Part shown: positions 6,545 through 46,174 of the stretch, piece by piece
Numbering within the stretch: the first letter of the stretch is position 1
Layout of the letters: every line of letters begins with the position of its first letter
NCBI GenBank assembly: GCA_951406725.2
Contig: OX597818.1
Span: forward strand, 15,376,001-15,440,000
Direction: 5' to 3'
Length of the DNA: 64,000 nt
Origin: Octopus vulgaris
Taxonomy: Eukaryota
The notes under the pieces: model-generated
The model's input: the letters and a program-made list of their open reading frames with translations, nothing else
Told to the model about the DNA's origin: nothing
The model's database searches: none
Program-made: the position numbers and the translations under genes

Positions 6545-6865
6545 GTGTTCCTATTGTGGATCATCTAGAAAATGTCATTGAAGCTGAAGAGTCACAGAGC
6601 AAAACTGTTAAGTGTTTCATTTATTCATACTCTCAGAAAATTCATGTTGAGTGGCTCCATAACAATCATCTAAAAGAAGGGGTAATTTTATCCCAATCAA
6701 ATCGTCAAGCAACTGTGGTAAATGAAACAGTTCAGTTACCAGGATATATTGCTCAATTAGAATTAAAAAATATTAGAGAGAAAGATTTTGGAAAATACAC
6801 GCTATATGTTCACAATAAAGAAGGTGTATCAAATGCTACATTTATTTTAAGAAATGCAGCTACAG
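6545..6865 (+). CDS. IgSF receptor: membrane-proximal Ig (I-set-like, Kirrel/nephrin-like) domain exon; upstream exons not identified in the window
   Basis: Poly-T tract then tttcag acceptor; G|gtaag donor; 321 nt, phase 1-1. Encodes GVPIV..VKCFIYS..VEW..LELKNIREKDFGKYTLYVHNKEG..FIL, with B-strand Cys, C-strand Trp and the D-x-G-x-Y tyrosine corner. Confidence 0.92.
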
Positions 6866-10712: not shown

Positions 10713-10820
10713 CTAATAATGTACTGACCATTGGAATTACGTGTGCTGTGATAGTTCTCATTCTTGTTACACTTATCATATGCTGCTTTTGGTACTTTTC
10801 TATCAGGAAGATCCCATCAG
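10713..10820 (+). CDS. IgSF receptor: transmembrane exon
   Basis: tactttcag acceptor; CAG|gtaaag donor; 108 nt, phase 1-1. Encodes ANNVLTIGITCAVIVLILVTLIICCFWYFSIRKIPS: hydrophobic helix, Cys-Cys, then basic stop-transfer residues. Confidence 0.9.
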
Positions 10821-13387: not shown

Positions 13388-13412
13388 TTACTGAAAAAAG
13401 GGAATATTCAAG
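13388..13412 (+). CDS. IgSF receptor cytoplasmic microexon A1 (25 nt, VTEKREYS)
   Basis: Long T tract plus ttacag; AAG|gtaaat donor; phase 1->2, in frame with the TM exon. Confidence 0.8.
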
Positions 13413-13958: not shown

Positions 13959-15654
13959 TGCATTACCCTCCAATTAACTCTACCTAACTATTCAATATAA
14001 AGAGCTAATAATGTTGGATGTAGAAGAGATTGTACAGTGCTGAATTAAAATATAAGCTAAAAAATAAAAGAAACTGAAAAAATAGAAAATAGAAAAAGAT
14101 GGTAGCTTAGTCTAGTAATCACCTGTTATTCCAGTGCTCCATCATGAAAATCTATTGTCACCCCATAATGTGGTACTTTTAAGCCTACATTTGCTGCCCT
14201 CTACCTACCCAGGCCTTTGTTTCACTTCACTTAGCATCCTTGCTCCACCTCCTCTCTACCAAATCATCTCTGCTTTTACATTTCCTTTTGCCTAAGAGCT
14301 CTCCATCTATCATGTCCTTACCACCTGTTGCTGATCACATCATCTTCATCACTGCCCACTTGCCCTTCAGTAGTATATAAGAAGCTGCATTTGGCTACCA
14401 TCATCCTCTATCCAATACACTTTAACTTCACTATGCTGTGTTGCCAGCCAGCACTCCTATTCCTCTCTGAACAACCTCTGTTGCTACCCTTCACCTACTC
14501 TTGCCTTTATCTCAGCACCAACTTCTACTTTTGTCAACTGCTGTTATTGCCAGCTAGTAAAACCAGTGAGACTTCTTCATATCATATCTGACTGTTTTAA
14601 GAAAATCCCAGTACATATTGGAGAATGATACAGAAAGAGAGAATGGTTATGGTGGGAATGAGAGTCAGGACAAATTCTGTGAGGCATTCTATCAGATGCT
14701 CTAACAACATAGACAGCTTGCTACCTTAATATAAGAGTTGAAGGTCAGTTAGTAGATAGAAAGAAAAGCACTGTACATTTTTCTTACTAATCAGCTTTCT
14801 TTTTCCCTGAGGATATGAGCCTGATCAGGCTGGAATCAGTTACTAACTTTTCTTATAACCGATGCTGAAATTGTTCCATCAATATCCCAGATCTTTAAAG
14901 CGGCAAGCTGGCAGAATCATTAGCATGCTGGTCGAAATGCTTAGCAGTATTTTGTCTGTCTTTGCATTTGAGTTCAAATTCCACTGAGGTCGATTTTGCC
15001 TTTCATCCTTTTGGGGTCGATAAATTAAGTACCAGTTGCATACTCTAATTAAGTACCAGTTGCAACTCTAATCAAGTGTCCCCCTCCCTAAAAATTTCGG
15101 GCCTTGTGCCTAGAGTAGAAAAGAACATTTCAAATCTTTCTCACTCCTGCTTGTTTATTGCTTTCTTTGTTATACCTTGTTTTTTATTAATTTCTTTTTA
15201 CTTTAAGGATTTTCCTTTCATCTTATAGTTCAACAAAAACATCTTCTCTTGAAAATTATTGGAATAACAAAGTCTTGAGGTTGTCAATTTTAACATTTTA
15301 TGCTTTGCATGGCTATTTTGCTGGAATGAAAAGCATTGAGTTTGTCAACTTTAACATTTTATGCTTTTGCATGGGTAACATTATTGAAATATCATTCTGT
15401 ATGCGTTTATATATTTGTAGCATTCAAAATATTTTGTTTTATGTTATGAGGGTGTGTGAATGTGCCAGTTTTCAGGTGGGTTAATATAAAGCCTCTGATG
15501 GTGAGGGGTGACCATAACATATATATATATATATATTAATGTTATCATCGTTGTTTTAACATCTACTTTTCCATGCTCACATGGGCAAAGTTTGTTGAGA
15601 CAAATTTTCTAAGACTGGATATCCTTCCAGTCCCAAACTCTAATTTGTATTATA

Positions 15655-15988: not shown

Positions 15989-17290
15989 CAAACAGACAAT
16001 GAATATATCACATTACTGTTGCATTTTTATACACACATTCACGCATATCAGTTGAAAAGTGAAAGTGTAATAGTAATACTTTAACACTCAATGGTTTTAT
16101 ACTTCTACACTCACTGAGTGGTTGGCGTTAGGAAGGGTATCCAGCTGTAGAAACACTGCCAAATCAGACTGGAGCCTGGCACAGCCTCCTGGCTTCCCAG
16201 ACCCCTGTCGAACCGTCCAACCCATGCTAGCATGGAAAACGGACGTTAAACGATGAGGATGAGGATGATTATGTACATGACATGGACCTACTATTCATGT
16301 AAGTGCTTCTTCATATACTGTGTTTTCTCTCTTGCCATGTTTATCACTGAGAATGTAGAGGTTCTTTTCATCTCCAACTCTAGAACATCCAACATACAGC
16401 TGACCATGTGTGAAGCAAGGTTGAAGGAGGTTAAGCCCCACCACCTTTAGCGATTGAGCTTGTGCTTTGTTGATAGACATTGCAAAGCTGAGTTTGACAG
16501 GAAACTGCAGTCTCTTGAACTGAAAGGGGAGGTCATTTGAGATAAGAGGTATCCTTGGAATGAAGACATTCTCACCCATCATGTTGCCATGATGGAGAAG
16601 AGGTTTCTCAGCTGCAAAGGAGACTTGCACATTTGTGCCTCTGTCAGAGTGGCATCCCAGTGTGCATCGTCTTCTAGAAAACCTCTGAGATGGCAAGCCT
16701 GGCAATATGTTTGACATACTATGTTATTAACCATATGTAAGGCTGTAAATAATGTGGATTACTTGACATGGTGTAATAGAAGAATTAGATAGTAACACTC
16801 TTAGTAGTTGGGATGAGCAACAGAGACTCTGCCAAGTGTGTCTGGTTTTTTAATTCCCAGATGATGTGTGGGTGCTCCAAGTGCATGTCTTTTCCATTTG
16901 TTTTGGTACTAGGTATAGAAATGTGGAACTTCATTGTATAGCAGTCTTGTAGCAAATTCATCATCTTGACAGAGCTTGAAGAATGCTGTGAGCATGGTAT
17001 TTTTGGAAGCTTCCATTTGTAGTTGGACTGTGTCTGTCAGTGTGCTGTCTCTGAGATGGAGGACAATGTCATGCTTGTCATGTTCTTGCCCAGCCAGAAG
17101 CATAGCTATTTCATTTGCTGTTGGAGCATTAAACCTCCTTCCAGGTTGACAAGATGGATTCTTGCCTGATCTGATAACTACCTTGTAATCTAGGGAGTTA
17201 GATGGAATTTTTTCAAATGCAGTCTTGAAGCTTCTGTTATACAGCATCTTTTGCAAAGACACTACAATGTTCAACCTGATGCCAGAAATG
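15655..17290 (-). mobile_element. Internally deleted Helitron (Rep and PIF1-helicase fragments)
   Basis: ORF 16295-16717 has FKRLQFPVKLSFAMSINKAQ..SL..VG..L..PCFTHGQLYVGCSRV. ORF 16909-17274 has RRFNAPTANEIA and TMLTAFFKLC..LLYNEVP. The 3' end has a hairpin (acccagcattgcctgggt, 15666-15683) followed by CTAG at 15655-15658. Confidence 0.9.
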
Positions 17291-17399
17291 TTCTTTTAAT
17301 TTTAATTGCTAATTATACAACATAATTAGTTAGATAAATGACCAACATGTGTTTCTGCAGCATAGAGAATGTGCAGTTGCATATGCACCATCATTTAGG

Positions 17400-27397: not shown

Positions 27398-27447
27398 TGA
27401 CAGTACAAAGTTATCCAGTGTAAAGTACATTAGGGATTTCAACAAAG
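27398..27447 (+). CDS. IgSF receptor cytoplasmic microexon B1 (50 nt, SDSTKLSSVKYIRDFNK)
   Basis: ttctttctag acceptor; AAG|gtaagg donor; phase 2->1, open in the required frame; same length as B3 and B4. Confidence 0.78.
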
Positions 27448-29844: not shown

Positions 29845-31136
29845 TGAGGGGCGTTCAATAAGTAATGCCCCTGACCCACTTCCCATAGCAGTAGAGCAAC
29901 AAAACTTGGCGTAGTTATTAGTCTTTTTCTACATAGGAACCACCCAGAGTTACACATTTCTCCCATTGTTTGATGCAGCTCTGGAGACCATTTTTGTAGA
30001 AGACCCCAGCCTGGTCTACCTACCACGACGTGACTTCAGAAATCAAGGCTGCATCATCTGGGAAACGTTTTCCTTTCAAAAACAACTTCATGGCTGGGAA
30101 GAGGTGAAAATCAGAGGGTGCAAGGTCAGGAGAGTAGGGAGGATGGGGGAGAGTTCATAGCCGCACGCCTGTGCTTCTGATCTGGCGACACGCGAGTTGT
30201 GGACCGGAGCATTGTCCTGCAGGAGGAGGATGCCTTTGCTGATCTTGCCCCGCCTCTTGATTTTGATAGCTTCTCTTAATTTCCTCAAAAGTGAAGCATA
30301 ATAGGCTCCTGTAATTGTGGTACCCTTTGTCAGGAAATCTGTCATCACTACTCCGTCCTGGTCCCAGAAGACTGTGAGCATGACCTTGCCAGTGGAGGCC
30401 TGCACCCTTGCCTTCTTTGGAGGAGGTGAGTCGTGGTGCTTCCACTGCATTGACTGGGCTTTGGTCTCTGGATCATAGTGATGGACCCAGGTTTCATCCT
30501 GTGTAATCAGTCTTTTGAAAAATTTTGACTCATCTTCTTGGCACATCTCCAAATTCATCCTCAAGCACTCGACACGTTCTTGCTTCTGGAAAGGTGTGAG
30601 CAACGTGGGAATCCATCTGGCAGGCACCTTTTGCATATGCAATTGGTCATGAATGATAGTTTCCACAGACCCGGTACTAATCTTGACCTCATGGGCTATT
30701 TGGTGAATAGTTATGCGTCGATCTTCCAAAATGGCAGCCTCAACTTGATGGACAGATGCCTCATCAATAGCAGAAGTGGGGCGACCAGATCTGGGAGCTG
30801 TTTCCACAGAGTTCCGACCATGTTTGAATTCACGATGCCAGCGTTTTACAAGGTTATATGATGGGGCATCATCACCACAAATTACTTTCATTTCATCAAA
30901 AGTCTCCCGTGGTGTGCGTCCTTTCAAATACAAAAACCGGATCATTGCTCGACATTCAACAGGCTCCATTTCACACTTGACTCAGTTCAAACACCTGCAA
31001 ATCAGAGACCACAATTAGTTCCGAGCTGTAATTTGCCACTTAAGTTATAGAGATATTGATAATTGCACATGCAAAATTTCAGCTATATCAAACAATTGCA
31101 AATGGGTCAGGAGCATTACTTTTTGAACGCCCCTCA
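29845..31136 (-). mobile_element. Full-length mariner (DD34D, irritans-like) with ~36-bp TIRs and TA target duplication
   Basis: TIRs tgaggggcgttcaataagtaatgcccctgaccca / tgggtcaggagcattactttttgaacgcccctca, 1292 bp in total. Confidence 0.97.
29918..30969 (-). pseudogene. Mariner transposase with a 1-nt frameshift (~30150) and one premature TAG
   Basis: WIPTLL, TQDETW and QDNAPVH in ORF 30088-30969. After the frameshift the sequence reads HPPYSPDLAPSDFHLF...W*VDQ...QWEKCVTLGGSYVEKD*. Confidence 0.95.
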
Positions 31137-32731: not shown

Positions 32732-32756
32732 ACGAATTTATCTCGGAAAATGACGA
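32732..32756 (+). CDS. IgSF receptor cytoplasmic microexon A2 (25 nt, DEFISEND)
   Basis: ctaat branch-like site, ttcttttgcag acceptor, GA|gtaaga donor; phase 1->2. Confidence 0.82.
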
Positions 32757-32793
32757 GTAAGATATTAAATATATTTTGTAAATTATATTTGTT

Positions 32794-32872
<79 letters not shown>

Positions 32873-33919
32873 CTGTGTGTTATATGATTTATTTCTCTAA
32901 TGTAGGTATGAAAAGGTTTAATTTTCTAATGCATATAAATATAAATATATATGTACATTTATGCATATATATATACACATATTCAGCAAAATTTAGATTC
33001 AGAAATTTAGTTCAGCAAAATTTAGATTCAGATGAATATGGTACTTAAGTTAAAGGCACCAGAATTTTGTATGGTATTATTCATATAAATCAAATGGGGT
33101 GACTATAATCAAAATAAGCAATAAGGATATCCAAGGTAGAGTAGTACAATTGTTTCATGCTGCTTCATTTTATTAAACACTGTAAGTATTACATCAGTTT
33201 TAATATGCCGAGCAATCTTCAGCCACATATAGAATTTTCCAATTAAAGGGACAATGCATATTCTTATCCCTATTTCATTTGCCAACATTATAAAGAGGGT
33301 AGATATATAGAACATGATAGTAGTATGTTCCTGTAGATTTTATCATTGAGTTCACTTTGTTATTTAGATCTATCAGTGGGGAGGGTTTTTTTTTATTCTT
33401 GGTTGAATGGAGACAAACAAGAATTTTTTCTATTTATAGATAGAGGAAGGGGTAGGTAGTACAATTGTCAAAACCAGAAACCCATCCTCATTTTGAGGAA
33501 TTCAGTTTAGATATATTTGAATGTATTAAAGCAAAAAGCTAGTAGGCTGAAGTTAGTGGGGTAGGGGGAATATATAATGCACACACACACACACACACAC
33601 ATATATTGATAAAAAAGGTCTCCAGAATTTTGTGAAAAAATTTTTTATTTATTCATTATTATTAGCACTTTCGTTCATTTTTCAAACTTGTGAAATAAGA
33701 TTGTGAAGGTGCAAACTGAATGTTCATTTATATAAAACGTTTTTGTTTTGATTTGTTTAGAAGAGGAGAACATTGTTTTCATTTTGTTTTGTTTTCTTTG
33801 GGTGAGGTTCCAGGACAATGGAGATAGATAGATAGATAGAGAGATGGATGGATGGATGGATGGATGGAGAGAGAGAGAGAGAGAGATGGATGGATGGATG
33901 GATAGAGAGAGAGAGAGAG

Positions 33920-33971
<52 letters not shown>

Positions 33972-34918
33972 GGATGGATGGACAGACAGTAAGATAGGTA
34001 GAGAGAGGGAGGAGGGAGGGATGGCACTTCAATTTGACTTCTATTGACCATTTATTTATTTAGCCAAGCACTTTATTTCACGTTGCTCCAGTTCACTCAG
34101 CTGTAGAAATGAGTTGCGATGTCACTGGTGCCAAGCTGTATCGACCTTTGTCTTTCCCTTGGATAACACTGGTGGCATGGAGAGGGGAGGCTAGCTGGCA
34201 GAAGCGTTAGCACACCGGGCGAAATGCTTTGCGGTATTTCGTCTGCCGTTACGTTCTGAGTTCAAATTCCGCTGAGGTTGACTTTGCCTTTCATCCTTTC
34301 GGGGTCGATAAATTAAGCACCAGTTACGCACTGGGGTCGATGTAATCGACTTAATACCTATGTCTGTCCTTGTTTGTCCCCTCTATGTTTAGCCCCTTGT
34401 GGGTAGTAAAGAAATAGGTATGCATGGGCGACTGCTGGTCTTCCATAATCAACCTTGCCAGGACTTGTGTCTAGGAGGGTAACTTTCTAGGTGCAATCCC
34501 ATGGTCATTCATGACCGAAGGGGGTCTTTACCATTTACCATTGTATTGACATAGGCCAAGCATGCTGACCTCTCCAAGATATCAGTTCTAGGATGGAGAA
34601 AATAATGAGAAAAGGATGAGGTGTGGTCATCAATGAAAGCATTTTTGTTTTTTGTCTTTTTCTTAAGGTGCCAGAAGAAAAAGAACAAAGCAAAAATGCT
34701 TTTAGTGATGACCACACCTCATTATTTTGACTGAATAAATAAATAAATAATGACTAAATAAATAAATAAATAAATTGTGAATACATGTAAAATTGAAGTG
34801 GCATCCCTCCCTCCTCCCCTTCTCTATCTATCCATCTGTCTGTCTATCTCTCTCTCTCTCTCTCTATCTATCTATCCATCTATTTATCTATCTATTTGTC
34901 TGTCTGTCTGTCTATCTG

Positions 34919-34985
<67 letters not shown>

Positions 34986-35156
34986 AGCTACCTATCTATA
35001 ATAATAAAGCATATTACTCTACCTCTGGTATTCAATGGTATTCAAGTATTATTTTACTCCACCTTGTTTCACATTTATTTGCTTACTGTGGTATATATAT
35101 AATATGAATTAGAGATAAAACCACTATTATGCAACTCAAACAGCTATACTCCCTAA

Positions 35157-35204
<48 letters not shown>

Positions 35205-35662
35205 CATACATATATATGTATCTACGTATGTGTGAAGATACATGGTTCAGTGGTTAGGGCATTGGATCACAATCATGATGTAGTGAGTTCAATTCCTGGA
35301 CCAGGCTGTGTGTTTTGTTTTTGTGCAAGACACTTTATTTCACATTGCTCCAGTTCACTCAGCTGTAGAAATGAGTTGCGATGTCACTAGCCTCACTAGT
35401 CCCTTTCCCTTGGATAACATCGGTGTCATGGAGAGGGGAGGGTGGTATGCATGGGCAACTGCTGGTCTTCCATAAACAACCTTACGCAGACTTGTGCCTC
35501 AGAAGGGAACTTGCTAGGTCCAATCCCATGGTCATTCATTACCAAAGGAGGTCTTTACTTTTACATGTATGTATGTATATATGTATAGTTTACTATTTCA
35601 TTATTCATAGGATCAACAAAACATGTACTCTATCAAATGAAAGATTAATGTCTTTTAATGTA

Positions 35663-35871
35663 TGCAGAATTTAAATAAGAACTACCAATAGTATCACGCC
35701 ACGGAGACATGATACTTTGGCAGATTTATATAACGTGCCTTGTCTATCCCTCCAAGCAATCACTTAGGCTGAAAGATTGCTTGCAGGCACAAGGCACATT
35801 ATATAAATCTGCTGAATTATCATGTCACTATGGTATGAAGCTATTAATAGCTCTTATTTAAATATTTTGCA
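35663..35871. repeat. Fold-back (MITE-like) element with ~95-bp arms
   Basis: atttaaataaga...gcagatttatataacgtgccttgt...caagcaatc pairs with gattgcttg...acaaggcacattatataaatctgc...tcttatttaaat. Confidence 0.85.
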
Positions 35872-36067
35872 CATGAAATAACATGTGTGTATGAGTGTGC
35901 GTATTTATGTATATTAATGCAGAGAGGGAGAAAGAGAGAAAATATTAATGAAGAGATGATGATGAGAATTATGGTGATAGAGGTTGAAACACATGTGCAT
36001 ACATACACACACACACACACATGTGCACATCCAACACTTACTAAATACTATTTTCTTTCTTTTTCAG

Positions 36068-36105
36068 ACCTATATATGCAGAAATTGGCTACATAGATAT
36101 GGACA
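36068..36105 (+). CDS. IgSF receptor cytoplasmic microexon B2 (38 nt, EPIYAEIGYIDMD)
   Basis: ttttctttctttttcag acceptor; A|gtaagt donor; phase 2->1. The junction codon GA|A encodes Glu. Confidence 0.88.
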
Positions 36106-38679
36106 GTAAGTTTCTGTTCCCTCTTCATTGTAACAAGCAAATCCATTAAATCCAACAAATACATACACCAAACACTTTTGTACCATTCTACTAATAAAAC
36201 ACTAGCCTCTACTCTTCTACACAATAAAGATATAAGCCTTTTTAGGATTGATTTTAACATAATCAAATCAAATCAAAACAAATCAAAATAGATGAACATC
36301 AATGGAATTTCTATCTTTGTAGTACCAGTGCCGGTGGCACACAAGAAAACCATCCGAACGTGGCGGTAGCCAGTACCACATCGACTGGCCTCCGTGCTGT
36401 GGGCACGTAACAAACACCATCCGATCGTGGCCGTTCGCCAGCCTCATCTGGCACCTGTGTCGGTGGCACATAAAAACACCATCCGAAGACCCGGCAAGAC
36501 TAGTCAGGCCATAACCCGTGGCCCCTACCTGGGACGTAGTCAGTCCACCTGTGCATACCTTCCTTCTTATGACACTTGTGAAGACCTGTTGAGGCTAGTG
36601 TGTGACACTTGTGAAGACCTGTTGAGGCAAGTGAAAATCAAACAAAATCAAAATAGATGAACATCAATGGAATTTGTATCTTTGTGGTACCAGTGCCGGT
36701 GGCACACAAGAAAACCATCCGAACGTGGTCGTAGCCAGTACCGCATCGACTGGCCTCCGTGCTGTGGGCACGTAACAAACACTATCCGATCGTGGCCGTT
36801 CGCCAGCCTCATCTGGCACTTGTGTCGGTGGCACATAAAAACACCATCCGAGCGTGGCCGTCTGCCAGCCTCGTCTGGCACCTGTGTCGGTGGCACATAA
36901 AAAACACCATCCGAGCGTGGCTGTTCGCCAGTCTCGTCTGGCACCTGTGTCGGTGGCACATAAAATCACCCACTACACTCTCGGAGTGGTTGGCGTTAGG
37001 AAGGGCATCCAGCTGTAGAAACACTGCCAGATCTGACTGGCCTGGTGCAGCCTTCGGGCTCCCCAGACCCCAGTTGAACCGTCCAACCCATGCTAGCATG
37101 GAAAGCGGACGTTAAATGATGATGATGATGATATTCCTTGAAAGGACTATATTTTATTATGCTCTCCTCTTCTTTCTACAATGCTGCAACTTATCCAACT
37201 CCATGTCATCTCTTGCTTGTCACTCTCCTGTCTACTAAATCTTCATTACTACTCTGTTGCTTTCTCCCACTCCACTTTTACAACAATTTCAGTTACCTCC
37301 TACTTCCCCTGTCTCCTCTAACTCATGCCTTATTGTTCATCCTCAATCTTTATGCCCCATTCTCTACATCCACCCTTCAACCATAGGGAATCTTTACAAT
37401 TGTCACTTACCTCCCTTCTCATTTATTCCCCATTTCTCACTCTTGCAACTTCCATTCACCAACATTCTAATTCCTCTGTTCCTCTCACTTCTCCTCATTT
37501 CCTACACTGACAGTCTACCCTGGCACCTCATTGTTACTATTTTTATCTCTTTCCAGCTCCACCTGATCACTTTCATCCTCTCTTCTAAAATATGGGTAGC
37601 CAACTATATGTCATTTCTCTCTTGTCCCTCTCCTGTCTACTTAGTCCTTATTACTATTCTGCTGTTCTCCCCACTCCACTTTTATTGCATTGTCAGCTAC
37701 CTCCTACTTTCCCTATTGATCACTTCCATCTCCTCTTCTAAAATGTGAGTTGGCATGTTGATCTTCTACAGCAGAAAATCTGTTCTTCTCTCATACATTA
37801 ACCCTTCATTTCCTTGTATAAAGCTGCCCCTTGGAGTTACTAGCCATGCAGGATGTATGGCAACATCAATAGGGCTGGTGGATTGAACAAAGTACTCAGG
37901 ACACACTGTAAAGTGGTTGGCATCCAGCCATATAAACCATGCCAAAGTAGACACTGAAACAATGCAGTCAATGGACACATTTGTTCCTGTCAAACCATCC
38001 AACCCATGTCAGCATGGAATGTGGACGTTAAAGGATGATGATGAAGCCATTTTGCTCAGTACTCTCTGTTCATACACACATGCACCCCCCCCACACACAC
38101 ACACATATGTGTAGACATGGTTATTTGTAACTTAATGAGAAAAATTGTTACCTGATAATCCATTGTAGTTGAGAAAAGTACTTAGAACATTTATTGCAGG
38201 GCCCCAATCAACTACAAGGGTGGAAAGTGCATAGGAACTATAGTATAAACTTGTGTTTATCCTTATTATATATATATATATATGAAATATAAATTAGAGA
38301 TAAAACCACTATTATGCAATTCAATGGTATATTTTATATATCTATATTGTGAAATTTGATTTAATACTAAATTTAATTTTTCCCTGTAAGTTTGGAGTTA
38401 AACTCCCTAATATTATTATTATTATTATTATCATTATTATTATATATATATATATATATCCGTACACAGATACAGACAAACACACTCAGGATTTAGATAT
38501 GAGCAATGTGGCCTACTATAAGTTTCATGCTCAGATACCACATGGTCAATGCAGAGCATCACACCCACTCAAAAGAGCAATTCAGCTGAAACAAACCTAA
38601 TGGCTAACACAATTTGCTTCTTCAACCTGACAACACTCCCAAACCACCATCACCACCACTACCACTACCACCTCATTAA

Positions 38680-38945: not shown

Positions 38946-39128
38946 ATTTGTTAAAAATATTGATGAAAAATAAGGATTAAAATGAATGGAATAAAAGAAT
39001 GTCTGACTTTGTTTAACAACTCTTCGTGTATATATTTAAATATATGTTGATATATTAATGTATCTATACAGAGAAAAATATGTAATTATATAATGATATT
39101 AATATTTTACAAATCACTTTATTTACAG

Positions 39129-39159
39129 GGGCAAAAGCGCTCAAAGCTACCCAGAATGA
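39129..39159 (+). CDS. IgSF receptor cytoplasmic microexon A3 (31 nt, RAKALKATQN)
   Basis: tttatttacag acceptor; GA|gtaagt donor; phase 1->2; paralogous to A4. Confidence 0.88.
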
Positions 39160-39671
39160 GTAAGTATATACATTTTTTTAAATTTTTACAATTTCTTTGT
39201 CTTTTTTTTTCTACTTTAAGAAATCTACTTTGAAATTTACAAAGAGAAAGAATCTGATGGTTTGGGTGAAATTAATGATAGTTTATGTGGTTAAGGAATT
39301 TGTGTTGCAATCACATCATTCCAGATACAATATCACACTGCATGGCCAAGTCAGCTGAGCATGCCATGTAGAGGGCACTTATCTTAGTCTACAACAGCTC
39401 CTGATGAGAGCATTTAAAGGTAATTTTACATAAAAAACAACATCAGATCCAGGGAGTAGATGAAGCTTATGACCAGAACAAGAATGGTTTTAAAGCCAAA
39501 CACACACACACACACACACACACACTCTCAAAGTTTTCACTTCATATTTGGTATTGTCTCTTATGTTACATGAAATGGCTTCAATTATTATTTTTTACTT
39601 ATATGTCAAATTATATAATTTGTTTTCTTAGTCACCTTCATTGATAAGTATTTGATACGTTTGTTTTCCAG

Positions 39672-39721
39672 GTATTTAAGCCCGAAGTCTGTAAATTCTC
39701 TGAAGCGCATTCAAAATGAAG
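39672..39721 (+). CDS. IgSF receptor cytoplasmic microexon B3 (50 nt, EYLSPKSVNSLKRIQNE)
   Basis: ttgttttccag acceptor; AAG|gtgaga donor; phase 2->1; 40/50 nt identical to B4. Confidence 0.9.
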
Positions 39722-40999
39722 GTGAGATTTTTCTTCATTATTCTCTAAATTTAATAACATTAATTAGTTTAACTGCTTAAATGATAGAATCGTGGTAATC
39801 ATGAAGAATAAGAAGATTATGCAGGAGAGATGATTGTGGAATGGCCAAAATGCCCTCATATTCCACCCATCTGTCTGACAACCACCTACAGACAAATCAT
39901 CCATCTCATAAATATTCCCATCCTGCAAAGCATGCTTACATTTATTTATTTGATCTTGGCTTGGTTTTGCTTCATGCTTTTTTTTGATGGGGCTGGGGTC
40001 ATCCCAGGTTAGTGGCCCCAAAGACATCATTATGTGTAGAGCTGACCAGGTCAACCAGTGCTCTTCATCGGGGGCAGCCCCTCTGCATCCTCCAAGGTGA
40101 TGTCAAGTCTCTAGAGATCTTCCCCAATCATGTCCAGCCATCTGATGCAGGACCTGCCACAAGGCCACTTCTAGCCTGCAGCTACTGTATTGAATGAGAG
40201 TAAAACCCTGGTAGATTTTAAAATCCACTCATTACAATTTGCAAAATAAAAAGTTGATTATAATTTCCATTGGAGTTGAGCTATAATTTTGGGTGTGCAC
40301 TCAGCAAATGAAGATTTCTGTTATTTTATTTTATTTATAAATCTCAACTTTCTATGTCTATTTCAATTTTGATGCCAAACCCATAAATTATTTATGTTTT
40401 GTGTAAATAATTCATACTGAAATTACCCACAATTGCATTGAACTATCTTGATCTGCAACAAACCTCCCCTCCTCTCTCTCTCTCTCTCTGGGCATCTGCA
40501 TGTGGGTATGGTGAATGTGCATGTGTGTGCATATGCACATACAACTGAGAAAAGACACATAATTGCCAACAGAGATGTACATAGCAATTTTGTATCAAAA
40601 TAAGTTATCTTTTACACAGTTTGTTTTTAATTCATTGAATTAATCCCATCAAAGTACTCTGAGTTTCTCACTGGCCATATCCATTTATTTATTTAGATTT
40701 ATTACACAGTCATAAGTCTAAATAATCAACAGAGATGATCAGCTCAAGTCTGGAACAGCATGATTCTACATAAGAAAACTACACACACATACATGTACAC
40801 ATGGTTAACATGCAGTTTACCATTGTAAAATAGTGAAAGTAAATTGTCCTTAAAAAAGGAAATTTTTTGCAATAAAAACAGGAAGTGACAACACAAACAT
40901 CACGTAATTTCATATAAACACTATGTAATGTTGGTGATGGCAGCTGTCCATTGTAGGTCAATATTGACTAGTCTGTTAAGGAATCACCTCTGGCAGGCT

Positions 41000-41990: not shown

Positions 41991-42460
41991 GAACTCAGAG
42001 AGAAGCAGGGTCACTTTTACTGAAATCAAGTCTGAAGTATAGGAGGAAATGAGTGAGACCAACGAAATTTAATGTCTGTTTTCCATGCTGGCATGGGTTG
42101 CACAGTTTGACTGTGGACTGGAGAGCCAGGCTCCAATCTAATCTGGCAATGTTTCTCCAGCTGGATGCCCTTCCTAATGCCAACCACTCTGAGAGTGTAG
42201 TTGGTACGTTTTACATTCCACCAGCACAGGAGCCAGACAGGGGCACTGGCATCAGCCATGTTCAGATGGTGTTTTTTACATGCCAGCAGCATGGGAACCA
42301 GTCAAGGGGCCCTGGCATCGATCACGTGATTGATAATCAACCTTCTTACCACAAATCCATGCCTGCTAATATATAGGTGGCCATCAATTGTGATGAGTTT
42401 GTTTTTTTCTCTCTCAATTCATTTTTTCTCTTTACATTTAACAAATCTATTTATTTACAG

Positions 42461-42491
42461 GGACAATTGACCGCAAATCTACTGAGAATGT
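42461..42491 (+). CDS. IgSF receptor cytoplasmic microexon A4 (31 nt, GTIDRKSTEN)
   Basis: tttatttacag acceptor; GT|gtaagt donor; phase 1->2; 21/31 nt identical to A3. Confidence 0.88.
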
Positions 42492-42907
42492 GTAAGTATG
42501 CAAAATTAAAATATATCTTCACACACTTTCCTTATATATATTTTTTTCATTTGAATCCATCTACCTGGAAATTTAAAAAGAGAAAAATATCTTTATATTT
42601 GATAGTTTTGGGAAAAATTGATAATGGTTGTTTGTGTGGTCAAAGAATTTGTATAGCATTCACATCATTGCAGATACAATCACATTGCTTGGCTGAATCA
42701 GCTGAGTATGGAATGTGGTGGGCACTTATCTAAATCTGAACTACAACAGTTTCTGATGAGAGTATTTGTAAGAAGCCTTAAGAGAACGACGTCAGACCCT
42801 GGGAGTAGGTTGAAGTTTATCTCCTTGGAAAAAATGAGTTTAAAGCCAAACACACACACACACATGCACAAGCGTGCACATGCACACACGCACACAGACA
42901 CACTCAT

Positions 42908-42952
<45 letters not shown>

Positions 42953-43651
42953 AGATAATGAACCACTGCTCGGCAATGGCCCAATCCCATCTTCATCGAG
43001 TGAGGAAACTATGGAAGTGGTGGTTTTTCACACACACACACAAATAATACACATGTAAACAAACAAAAGCATGCACATGCATATGCATGCACAAACATAC
43101 ACACATGTACACACACGTACAAACAAGCACATGCACACACATACACACATTCACACACACACATACATGTATACACAGACAGATAATGCATATGAAGAGT
43201 TAAAAACAAAGATAAAAAAATATTTATAGCTTTTAACTAAGATATATATAAAGCACGATTTATTCGTGAGCAGAGGCGTGATCTTTAATTGGTGATTCTA
43301 CCATATAATACCATTGATCATTTCTGTTGTAGCAACATATTTAGATACAGCGAATATCAATCAAATTAATATAGCTGAATATACATGTTAAAACAATGTT
43401 ATCAAGGCAATCCAAGATTAGTTAAATTCCATTAGTTTAATTCCTTTTTCTTGTTATATAAATATATATATGTATGTATGCATGTATATACATATGTAGA
43501 AATATGTCTGTGTGTGTGTGTGTGTGTGTGTGTTTGTGTATGTGTGTGAGAGGGATTATATATGTATGTATGTGGATAGGTAGGTAGGTATAATTCATCT
43601 TTTTACAGTTAATTTCATTGTTGTTAAGTGTGTGATTCATTTATCTTCCAG

Positions 43652-43701
43652 ATATTTAAACCCATTGTCAGTAAATTCCCTGAAGCACGCTCAAAATGAA
43701 G
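43652..43701 (+). CDS. IgSF receptor cytoplasmic microexon B4 (50 nt, VYLNPLSVNSLKHAQNE)
   Basis: ttatcttccag acceptor; AAG|gtgaga donor; phase 2->1. Confidence 0.9.
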
Positions 43702-44850
43702 GTGAGATTTTTCATTATTTTCTAAATTTAATGGCAAGGCAGCAAGCTGGCAGAATTGTTAGCATGCCAGGCAAAATGCTTAGCAGCACTTCATCTATCT
43801 TCGTGTTCTGAGTTCAAATTCCACTGAGATTAACTTTGCCTTTCATCCTTTTGGGGTCAATAAATTAAGTACCATTGGGGTTGATGTAATCAACTAGTTC
43901 CTTCCCCACAAATTTCAGGCTTTGTGTTTTTATTAGAATCATGGTAATCATGTAGAAATAAGAAGATTATGCAGGAGAGATGATAGTGGAATCTTTATCT
44001 TTAATCTTTTCTTTTACTTGTTTCAATCATTTGAATGTGGCCATGCTGGAGTACTACCTTGAAGGGTTTTGGGCAAACTCATTGACTCCAAGACTTATTT
44101 TTTAAAGCCTAGTACTTATTGGTCTCTTTTGCTAAACCATCAAGTTATGGGGGGATGTAAACACACTAACACCAGTTGTCAAGTAGTGATGGAGGGGACA
44201 AACACAGACACAGAGAGACAGACACAGATTTACATAGATATATATATAAAGAGTAAAGACCCCTTTCTGTCATGAATGACCATAGGATTGCAACTAGGTT
44301 ATCCTCCAAGGCACAAGTCCAGGCAAGGTCATATGTGAAAGACCAGCAGTCACCCATGCATACCAGTCTCCCCTCTTTATGCCACCGATGTTATCCAAGG
44401 AAAAGGCAAAGTCCTTTTATCCAAGTGAAAAGCAGCCATTTTGAATAAGTAGAGCTTGGCTCCAGTCTCATTACAGGCATTAATATAAGAACATAATAAG
44501 GTTGAACAGATACCACAAGACAACTTAAGGTCCTGAATTTTAACCCATTGCACACACTTTCTTCTGTGTCTACTGACTATTAAATTCTGTAATATAATCA
44601 TTTCAGCTATGAAGAATTAGATACCAGATTTTTTGTGAATGTTTTTTGGTATAGAAGAGCACTCTGTGAGAGATGTATCAATTCCTTACTAACATAATTT
44701 CATAGAACTGTAGCTAAATATTGGTATTTTTAGAACATTTATAAAGCATTTCATGAAACTGAGTTATGTCATTCGAAATTAGATTTCATTAAGTTATTTG
44801 AGACAAACAGCTCTGAAATTAATAATAATGTTTATTTTTTCCTATTGCAG

Positions 44851-44864
44851 CACTAATTGGATGA
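44851..44864 (+). CDS. IgSF receptor terminal coding segment (ALIG-stop), followed by putative 3' UTR
   Basis: Strong acceptor tttattttttcctattgcag. Phase 1 gives GCA CTA ATT GGA TGA, followed by ~800 nt of non-repetitive sequence. Confidence 0.7.
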
Positions 44865-46174
44865 AGTTCTACAACCACGAAGGAACGAGTTTACTGAGGA
44901 TTCTTTACAGGAAAAAAAAATTAGACCAATATTCATATACTTCTTACCCTGTTTATGTTTTTGTTTTTATTTCTTTTCTTTTAGTTTTTCCAAAGCAAAA
45001 CATCACCATTTATTTCCTACAGGATACAAAACTGATGGAAACTATGATTTCCATTAACAAAAATGCTCCTTTAAAAGAGAAGCAAAAGACCAGTCTTAAC
45101 ATTATTGTACAATGACAGTATATGTCCTGTATACAAATGATATATTTTGCTAATGTCCCTTAATATTTTGAACAATGCCATCCCTGCACCAAAAGAAAAA
45201 AAAGCCTTGATCAATTTTGAGCTAAATCATAGCAAATTGTGAAGCATTAATCAAAAGCACCGTCATCCAGATGTTTTTATTTTAATAACATTCTCCTGTG
45301 TATATGACAGCAGAACTTATGAGAATACAGAATGCTGAATGATTCCAATCCCTGAAAATTAAAACAACATTGACATAAAGAAGAGAATTTATAAGGTCTC
45401 AAGTATGAGGCAGTATTTTCAGTGAGAAAACTCTAACTGAAAACAATGCCTTATGATGATGGGTTTAATACTGGAATTCTCCACATGCTAATTCTTGCCA
45501 CGTATTTGGAGAACAAACAATTGCTTCATTTTGTTCATTCAAATTTCATCCACTTTGGCCATCGATCATGTCACCCGGTGTTTGTCCTATTCCTTTCCTT
45601 TATTTTCAATTGGAAGTTAACCACAATTATTTGTGTATAATTTTTCACTCTTGTATAATGCACATCTATCATTATAAGCAATGAAACTCCTAAAACAAAT
45701 ATCAGTCACATACAATATATATAAACTTTTTTTAGTGTCTATGATTTGTAAAAAAGAAATGGTCACTCAGATTTGTAATTGTCATATAAATGATCATTGT
45801 TATAATTATCATTTTTTTTTATGTCCATTTTCCATGCTGGCATGGATTAGATGGATTGTCATGTTCCAAGTTTGTTCTTCAGAGAGTTACTGTCCTTCAA
45901 GACAGATAGGAGGACCATCCAAATGTAGCTGATGCCAGTGCCGCCTGACTGGCTCCCATGCTGGTGGCACATAAAATGCACCCACTACACTCTCGGAGTG
46001 GTTGGTGTCAGGAAGTGCATCCAGCTGTAGAAACATTGCCAGATTGCATTAGAGCCTGATGCAGCCTACTGGCTTGCCAGACCTCTGTCAAATTGTCCAA
46101 TCTATACCAGCATGGAAAGCGGATGTTAAATGATGATGATGATGATATATATATATATATATATCAGAATAACA

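Follow-up and report, generated by a model that had tools for sequence, protein, structure and literature searches.

Sequences reading EPIYA are listed in ELM as a class of Csk ligands (LIG_CSK_EPIYA_1; PMC5753338), the systems compared here being Pragmin/PEAK2, p140Cap and the bacterial EPIYA effectors. A second point of reference is the pYEEI sequence of polyoma middle T, the standard ligand of Src-family SH2 domains (PMC5417323; PMC3514216), which is bound by all eight human members at 310-675 nM (PMC5417323). Invertebrate receptors with several tyrosine motifs are also known, among them Botryllus FcoR, whose tails carry [E/D]VYxx[ILV] cores (PMC11507803), Hydractinia Alr, and oyster CgNCAM1, a tested molluscan receptor of the immunoglobulin (Ig) type with immunoreceptor tyrosine-based inhibitory motifs, or ITIMs (PMC11841013). 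The stretch of DNA analyzed here (the window; 64,000 nucleotides, positions 15376001-15440000 of contig C5, OX597818.1, in the Octopus vulgaris genome labelled G000) contains the 3' half of a gene orthologous to O. sinensis RefSeq LOC115211591, represented in O. vulgaris by the models CAI9722396.1 and CAI9722397.1. Splicing within this gene builds an exact EPIYA motif in the cytoplasmic tail of a predicted Ig-type receptor. Judged from sequence, the tyrosines of that tail are probably ordinary phosphotyrosine docking sites, and EPIYA would be the form that a common acidic-x-[IV]-Y-x-x-I site takes in Octopus alone.

The octopus motif shares the exact EPIYA pentapeptide with the first of these groups, and the match extends to EPIYAE in Pragmin and to EPIYAEI in Lawsonia LI0666; it sits in a cytoplasmic stretch for which a model built on a five-row alignment gives no confident fold. 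Unlike those ligands, it is present as a single copy in a transmembrane Ig receptor, is not kept in the Argonauta orthologue and does not conform to EPxYAxV, and its binding of Csk is putative. Relative to pYEEI, the Argonauta protein and both distant homologues (described below) read Y-E-E-I outright, whereas Octopus retains the Glu at +2 and the Ile at +3 but has Ala at +1. The receptor resembles FcoR, Alr and CgNCAM1 in being a type I protein with no catalytic domain and with several tyrosine motifs, and it resembles FcoR and Alr in having tail exons that are altered by splicing. This likeness is one of architecture and motifs, and it has limits: by the consensus sequences of those papers, the octopus tail contains no ITIM, no immunoreceptor tyrosine-based activation motif (ITAM) and no hemITAM, and a single locus was matched in the genome. 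In CEACAM ITAMs the first YxxL is typically split by an intron (PMC2110893), and the octopus receptor, like those of the CEACAM1/CEACAM3 type, has short tail exons and an intron cutting through a tyrosine motif. The CEACAM intron is in phase 0 within the first ITAM YxxL, whereas the octopus introns are in phase 2 and fall three codons (exon B2) or one codon (exons B3 and B4) before the Tyr.

A sequence-only reading of the window had proposed that EPIYA is assembled across a splice junction and followed by YxxM, and had asked for the junction between positions 32756 and 36068 to be confirmed. The elements concerned are as follows.

32732..32756, + strand: tail exon A2, 25 nucleotides, phase 1-2, encoding EFISEND and the first two bases of a Glu codon; joined to B2 in 4 of 4 contigs.
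32757..36067, + strand: GT-AG phase-2 intron of 3,311 nucleotides, splitting the Glu codon; missing from the contigs that carry A2 and B2.
36068..36105, + strand: tail exon B2, 38 nucleotides, phase 2-1, encoding PIYAEIGYIDMD; edge-to-edge in 4 of 4 contigs, with 12 of 12 residues matching RefSeq.

Exon A2 is bounded by the acceptor ..ttgcag and the donor gtaaga, and B2 by ..tttcag and gtaagt; the intron between them contains microsatellites and dispersed repeats. When joined, the two exons encode EFISENDEPIYAEIGYIDMD, with the Glu codon assembled as GA|A and with Tyr codons at 36075-36077 (YAEI) and 36090-36092 (YIDM), corresponding to tyrosines 423 and 428 of the three-Ig isoform P0004, five residues apart. 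Evidence for the junction comes from 4 of 24 listed runs, aligned on B2 with short flanks and spanning four study codes and two organism codes. These runs are assembled contigs whose status as RNA is the tool's guess, none being on record as RNA. In each of the four, a single contig covers 36068-36106 with no flanking intron; beyond the exon it carries, on the loose 5' side, all of A2 preceded by the end of B1 and, on the loose 3' side, exon A3, so that 32756 is joined exactly to 36068; base 36106 is a G, compatible both with the donor and with A3. Because GT-AG introns are exactly skipped on both sides, the contigs are read as spliced RNA. The peptide DEPIYAEIGYIDM is also present in all nine gene models, of which seven are the full set of O. 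sinensis RefSeq isoforms and two come from O. vulgaris. The A2-B2 splice is not a chance arrangement, and the proposed motif and its junction are borne out to the base, with the RNA status of the contigs guessed. The alternative joining of exon A1 to B2, which had been predicted to give RPIYA, is indeed in frame and does yield RPIYA by arithmetic. However, it was found in 0 of 4 contigs, which lose rare variants, and in 0 of 9 models.

The identity of the pentapeptide is not preserved in the proteins compared from outside Octopus. The Argonauta hians orthologue (GAB1602869.1, 47% identity) has DPVYEEIGYTVM in the motif block, with DPVYE in place of EPIYA, and it carries DDPVYEEIGYTVM plus NEYLCP. 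Three of the five letters of EPIYA (E, I and A) differ, whereas both tyrosines, the Glu at +2, the Ile at +3, and the Gly and Met of GYxxM are kept (YTVM standing there for YIDM), and all three motif tyrosines of the tail retain their +3 residues. A search of 1.84 billion representative proteins returned 52 matches, the best of which after the two named orthologues is P0011 (E 6e-24), whose own best match in the O. vulgaris genome is this gene (E 1e-5). P0011 reads ELEIYEEI followed by EYLNP, and its relative P0034 reads ELDIYEEI followed by GYLNP. EPIYA is thus absent from the orthologue and from both homologues, which have DPVYE, LEIYE and LDIYE, respectively. Tail positions that do not vary in an alignment of five rows include Y423, E425, I426, Y444, L445 and P447, but exclude E420, P421 and A424. 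Since P0011 and P0034, together with Argonauta, read YEEI, the comparison suggests that YEEI is the older state and YAEI the derived one. Because Argonauta reads DPVYE, the resemblance to the Helicobacter sequence probably reflects how one lineage spells an ordinary tyrosine docking site, and the idea that EPIYA as such is the selected feature is not upheld.

The supposed special rarity of EPIYA in host proteins is not upheld either. Roughly 4 exact occurrences per 10 million residues are expected from composition alone, so EPIYA is as rare as any five-residue string. The motif that is reported to be depleted in mammals is EPxYAxV, which excludes even the EPIYAES of Pragmin (PMC3593179), and the octopus EPIYAEI does not match it, having Ile instead of Val at +3. 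Genome-wide, a DNA pattern coding for EPIYA gave 294 matches, compared to 164 in a reversed control, and these are mostly non-coding; a tighter pattern gave 11, of which only one, on contig C1, looks exon-like by eye. This second candidate EPIYA exon (C1:5248501-5248514, minus strand; L010:1457-1553), one of the 30 of 294 matches that were translated, is well formed and reads EPIYATVNK, and its EPIYATV is a full match to EPxYAxV. It is in phase with an upstream candidate exon carrying ENPYSTI, and an ankyrin-repeat exon lies about 20 kb upstream.

For comparison with other receptors, the 52 protein matches were reduced to 21 tails by setting aside 4 family members, 18 proteins with no membrane helix, 8 whose tails are short and 1 in which an Ig-like region follows the helix. 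Four of these 21 other Ig-receptor tails contain the core [IV]YAx[IVL], with 10 sites in total (shuffled mean 0.09, maximum 2 in 1000), and [IVL]Yxx[IVL] is found in 10 of them, with 22 sites in total (shuffled mean 2.75, maximum 9). The description of the locus as an invertebrate Ig receptor with an EPIYA/YxxI tyrosine five residues from a YxxM site is sound; YIDM fits the YxxM consensus for p85, and the YxxM is kept in Argonauta. The further label "inhibitory-type" fails by consensus. The tail tyrosines, checked by eye, include no ITIM ([I/L/V/S]xYxx[I/V/L]; 10.1101/2022.03.04.482883), the EPIYA site having Pro at -2. ITAM (Yxx[I/L]x(6-9)Yxx[L/I]) and hemITAM ([ED][ED][ED]xYxxL) assignments were also rejected, the tyrosines being only five apart and the second site ending in Met (PMC11507803; 10.1101/2022.03.04.482883). 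Because the site belongs to none of these classes, the label rests on the likeness to EPIYA.

If the tyrosines are ordinary docking sites, a ligand or a cell contact would cluster the receptor, and a Src-family kinase or Abl would phosphorylate the acidic-I-Y site, which would then hold an SH2 protein; by analogy with pYEEI, the best candidate is the Src-family kinase itself. PI3K p85 would be recruited by the nearby GYxxM and a Crk-type adaptor by the YLxP sites further along the tail, as Crk requires Leu or Pro at +3 (PMC3514216). YLNP was also considered as a Grb2 site and was ruled out because Grb2 does not tolerate Pro at +3 (PMC3514216). A single Ile serves as +3 of the first site and as -2 of the second, so that both are unlikely to be occupied at once. 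The signalling output is likely to be mixed or activating and not purely inhibitory. The identical seven-residue EPIYAEI of Lawsonia LI0666 is tyrosine-phosphorylated in mammalian cells (PMC9167531; PMC2999339), and candidate genes for the partners (Csk-like, SHP2, Src/Frk-type and p85) are present in the octopus genome. Three SH2 exons also lie on one strand at C3:157.80-157.89 Mb (L053, L054 and L055), possibly a Csk duplication or a multi-SH2 Csk; of the two that were searched, L053 is clearly Csk-like and L055 ambiguous, SHP2 and RasGAP chains outranking Csk.

Several observations weigh against this interpretation. Exact EPIYA occurs in 0 of the 21 comparison tails, and the octopus site has EPIYAE in common with Pragmin, which favors a Csk ligand. 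The +1 and +2 residues of YIDM are not those favored in array-derived p85 preferences (PMC3514216), and GYxxM is not present in P0011 or P0034. The inferred polarity leans on these two proteins, which are only about 25% identical, and in the tree their position is an open fork (78/86), with no resolved sister relationship to the clade of Octopus and Argonauta. Similarity over the tail alone is weak: the alignment scores were reached by 11 (P0004-P0011), 43 (P0004-P0034), 405 (Argonauta-P0011) and 521 (Argonauta-P0034) of 1000 shuffles. The motif block is identical to Argonauta in 8 of 13 columns, compared to 39 of 95 across the tail, which by hand arithmetic is not a strong excess (p about 0.1). 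Finally, phosphorylation and SH2 binding of the octopus tail are predicted events.

The most serious alternative, although it is unlikely, is that EPIYA in Octopus functions as it does in Pragmin and CagA and binds Csk; once phosphorylated, it would bring Csk to the membrane, damp Src-family kinases and compete with PI3K at the next tyrosine. The pentapeptide is exact and six residues are common with the EPIYAES of Pragmin, a site for which Csk is the only SH2 protein found to bind (PMC3593179). The Ala at +1 recurs in the Csk-binding EPLYA and EGLYA of p140Cap (PMC3561454), and a Csk-like SH2 exon is present in the genome (E 1.9e-27). The site is also identical in both Octopus species with models, but this says little because their tails are near-identical throughout. 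The changes at E, I and A in Argonauta and the frequency of IYA/VYA cores in other receptor tails argue against such a role. A related and somewhat less probable scenario is that a Glu-to-Ala change in the Octopus lineage turned an older YEEI docking site for Src-family kinases into a Csk-recruiting EPIYA, with the overlapping PI3K site making the two outputs exclusive.

Endocytic signals follow a Yxx-hydrophobic consensus, and one type of lysosomal targeting signal resembles G-Y-x-x-hydrophobic and is usually found near the membrane and at the C-terminus. By eye, YAEI and GYIDM both fit Yxx-hydrophobic, and in Argonauta the two middle positions of GYxxM have changed but its G, Y and M have not, a pattern that would suit unphosphorylated sorting signals. 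This is an improbable reading of the tail, as GYIDM is internal and, with or without exon X, some 45-70 residues away from the membrane, and as the first tyrosine is preceded by acidic residues and by a beta-branched one at -1, which suits kinase substrates (PMC3561454). That the motifs are functionless chance strings in a fast-evolving disordered tail is very improbable, since three motif tyrosines and their +3 residues are kept in Argonauta and Y-x-E-I and Y-L-x-P occur in the same order in two distant homologues, even if the compositional expectation given above and the only modest conservation of the motif block over the tail average point that way.

The putative docking sites are carried by a gene whose remaining features within the window comprise an Ig exon, a membrane exon, the other small tail exons (nine in all) and a last exon:

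6545..6865, + strand: exon of the membrane-proximal Ig domain, phase 1-1; agrees with RefSeq P0002 at 105 of 106 residues, with a Pfam V-set match at P0002 residues 337-424.
10713..10820, + strand: transmembrane exon with AG/GT ends; agrees with P0002 at 34 of 35 residues; helix predicted at 327-358 of P0004.
13388..13412, + strand: tail exon A1, 25 nucleotides, phase 1-2; 7 of 7 residues match the RefSeq models.
15208..15279, + strand: optional tail exon X, 72 nucleotides; missing from RefSeq isoform X4 and from the two O. vulgaris models and shortened in X2, as judged from gene models only.
27398..27447, + strand: tail exon B1, 50 nucleotides, phase 2-1; 15 of 16 residues match P0002; final bases joined to A2 in 4 of 4 contigs.
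39129..39159, + strand: tail exon A3, 31 nucleotides, phase 1-2; joined 3' of B2 in 4 of 4 contigs.
39672..39721, + strand: tail exon B3, 50 nucleotides, with the third tyrosine site NE|YLSP; Argonauta counterpart NEYLCP.
42461..42491, + strand: tail exon A4, tandem duplicate of A3; 21 of 31 nucleotides identical, 73% over 436 nucleotides with flanks.
43652..43701, + strand: tail exon B4, duplicate of B3, with NV|YLNP; 40 of 50 nucleotides identical, 82% over 115 nucleotides.
44851..44864, + strand: coding part of the last exon (ALIG, stop).

Phases alternate between 1-2 and 2-1 along the tail exons, and the chain from the transmembrane exon to the stop, with X left out, reproduces the C-terminus of the O. 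vulgaris model P0008. The pair A3-B3 was duplicated in tandem with its flanks to give A4-B4 (39104-39842 and 42436-43992), YLSP becoming YLNP in the copy. By sequence comparison these are the sole duplicated exon pairs in the tail; A1/A2 and B1/B2 were considered as duplicates and are unsupported, A1 and A2 being identical at 7 of 25 nucleotides with dissimilar flanks. In alignments, RefSeq isoform X5 skips A4 and B4, and Argonauta has no counterpart of either. The junctions 3' of A3, like exon X and the skipping of A4+B4, are based on gene models. A possible alternative acceptor about 170 nucleotides behind the start of the last exon (45023-45057), used in no model, would add two C-terminal tyrosines. 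Two sets of minus-strand open frames lie in the introns: one of 297 residues at 30088-30981, between B1 and A2, and several short ones at 16295-17295, after exon X. By eye, the former looks like a mariner-type transposase and the latter resemble pieces of a helitron helicase.

Additional Ig exons were placed 5' of the window by a whole-protein search of the genome, which matched this locus alone (7 matches among 43 candidates scored, a lower bound). The number of Ig domains in the protein is three or, as in the longest O. sinensis model, four, and all Pfam matches below E 0.001 are to Ig families (Ig_3 at 4.8e-15, I-set and V-set). The predicted structure of P0004, based on a five-row alignment (mean predicted local distance difference test score, pLDDT, 61), has three beta-sandwich domains, a helix at 327-358 that coincides with a hydropathy peak, and an unfolded cytoplasmic tail (residues 359-490, pLDDT <50). 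The best fold match is DIP-alpha Ig1-3 (14% identity), fold matches overall are to generic multi-Ig proteins (11-17% identity), and ESM Atlas matches are to generic Ig receptors only. By these predictions the product is a single-pass Ig-type surface receptor with no catalytic domain, agreeing with the definition of type I members of the Ig superfamily. Models P0008 and P0034 lack the membrane-proximal Ig domain encoded by 6545-6865, which hints at exon skipping or model error.

One O. vulgaris model carries the automatic name "kin of IRRE". Kirrel/Neph proteins have five Ig domains and a C-terminal PDZ-binding end. The octopus receptor is similar in having Ig domains, one membrane helix and a tyrosine-rich tail, but it has only three or four Ig domains and ends in ALIG, and the Kirrel-type matches form a separate, well-supported clade (100/99), so this identity was rejected. 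Word-index searches of proteins of at least 187 residues found no relatives beyond Octopus and Argonauta records. Among the papers listed by literature searches on octopus Ig/ITIM receptors and on invertebrate EPIYA, which left subscription journals mostly outside, none, judged from the listing, concerns this receptor, and the name LOC115211591 is in no paper of the literature searched. The receptor is an undescribed cephalopod one; multi-tyrosine receptor tails as such are already known.

Upstream of the window, at C5:15362941-15366036 (L002, L004 and L006), the first Ig exon is present in three tandem copies about 1.39 kb apart. The middle copy equals the third except for a frame-breaking gap of one nucleotide, which may represent an allele, decay or an assembly artefact; O. 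sinensis models use two of the copies, together or singly. A large cluster of multi-Ig receptor genes is located at C5:27.4-29.3 Mb, with copies on C28 and C31 (L044-L052), and an O. sinensis cluster member, LOC115212116, has a 430-residue tail with 30 tyrosines and repeats such as EPRYLPM and DVYVSV.

The locus adds one undescribed cephalopod receptor with a multi-tyrosine tail, the splice of which is supported by contigs, and it carries a warning that orthologues should be consulted before a match of five letters is given weight. If a Csk switch did occur in the Octopus lineage, a host Ig receptor would have converged independently on the Pragmin/CagA motif, best known from bacterial effectors, and the signal would have flipped from kinase-holding to kinase-damping. 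The receptors of Octopus and Argonauta would then form a pair, supplied by nature, that signal with opposite sign from one tyrosine, and two peptides would offer a test of how SH2 specificity changes during evolution.

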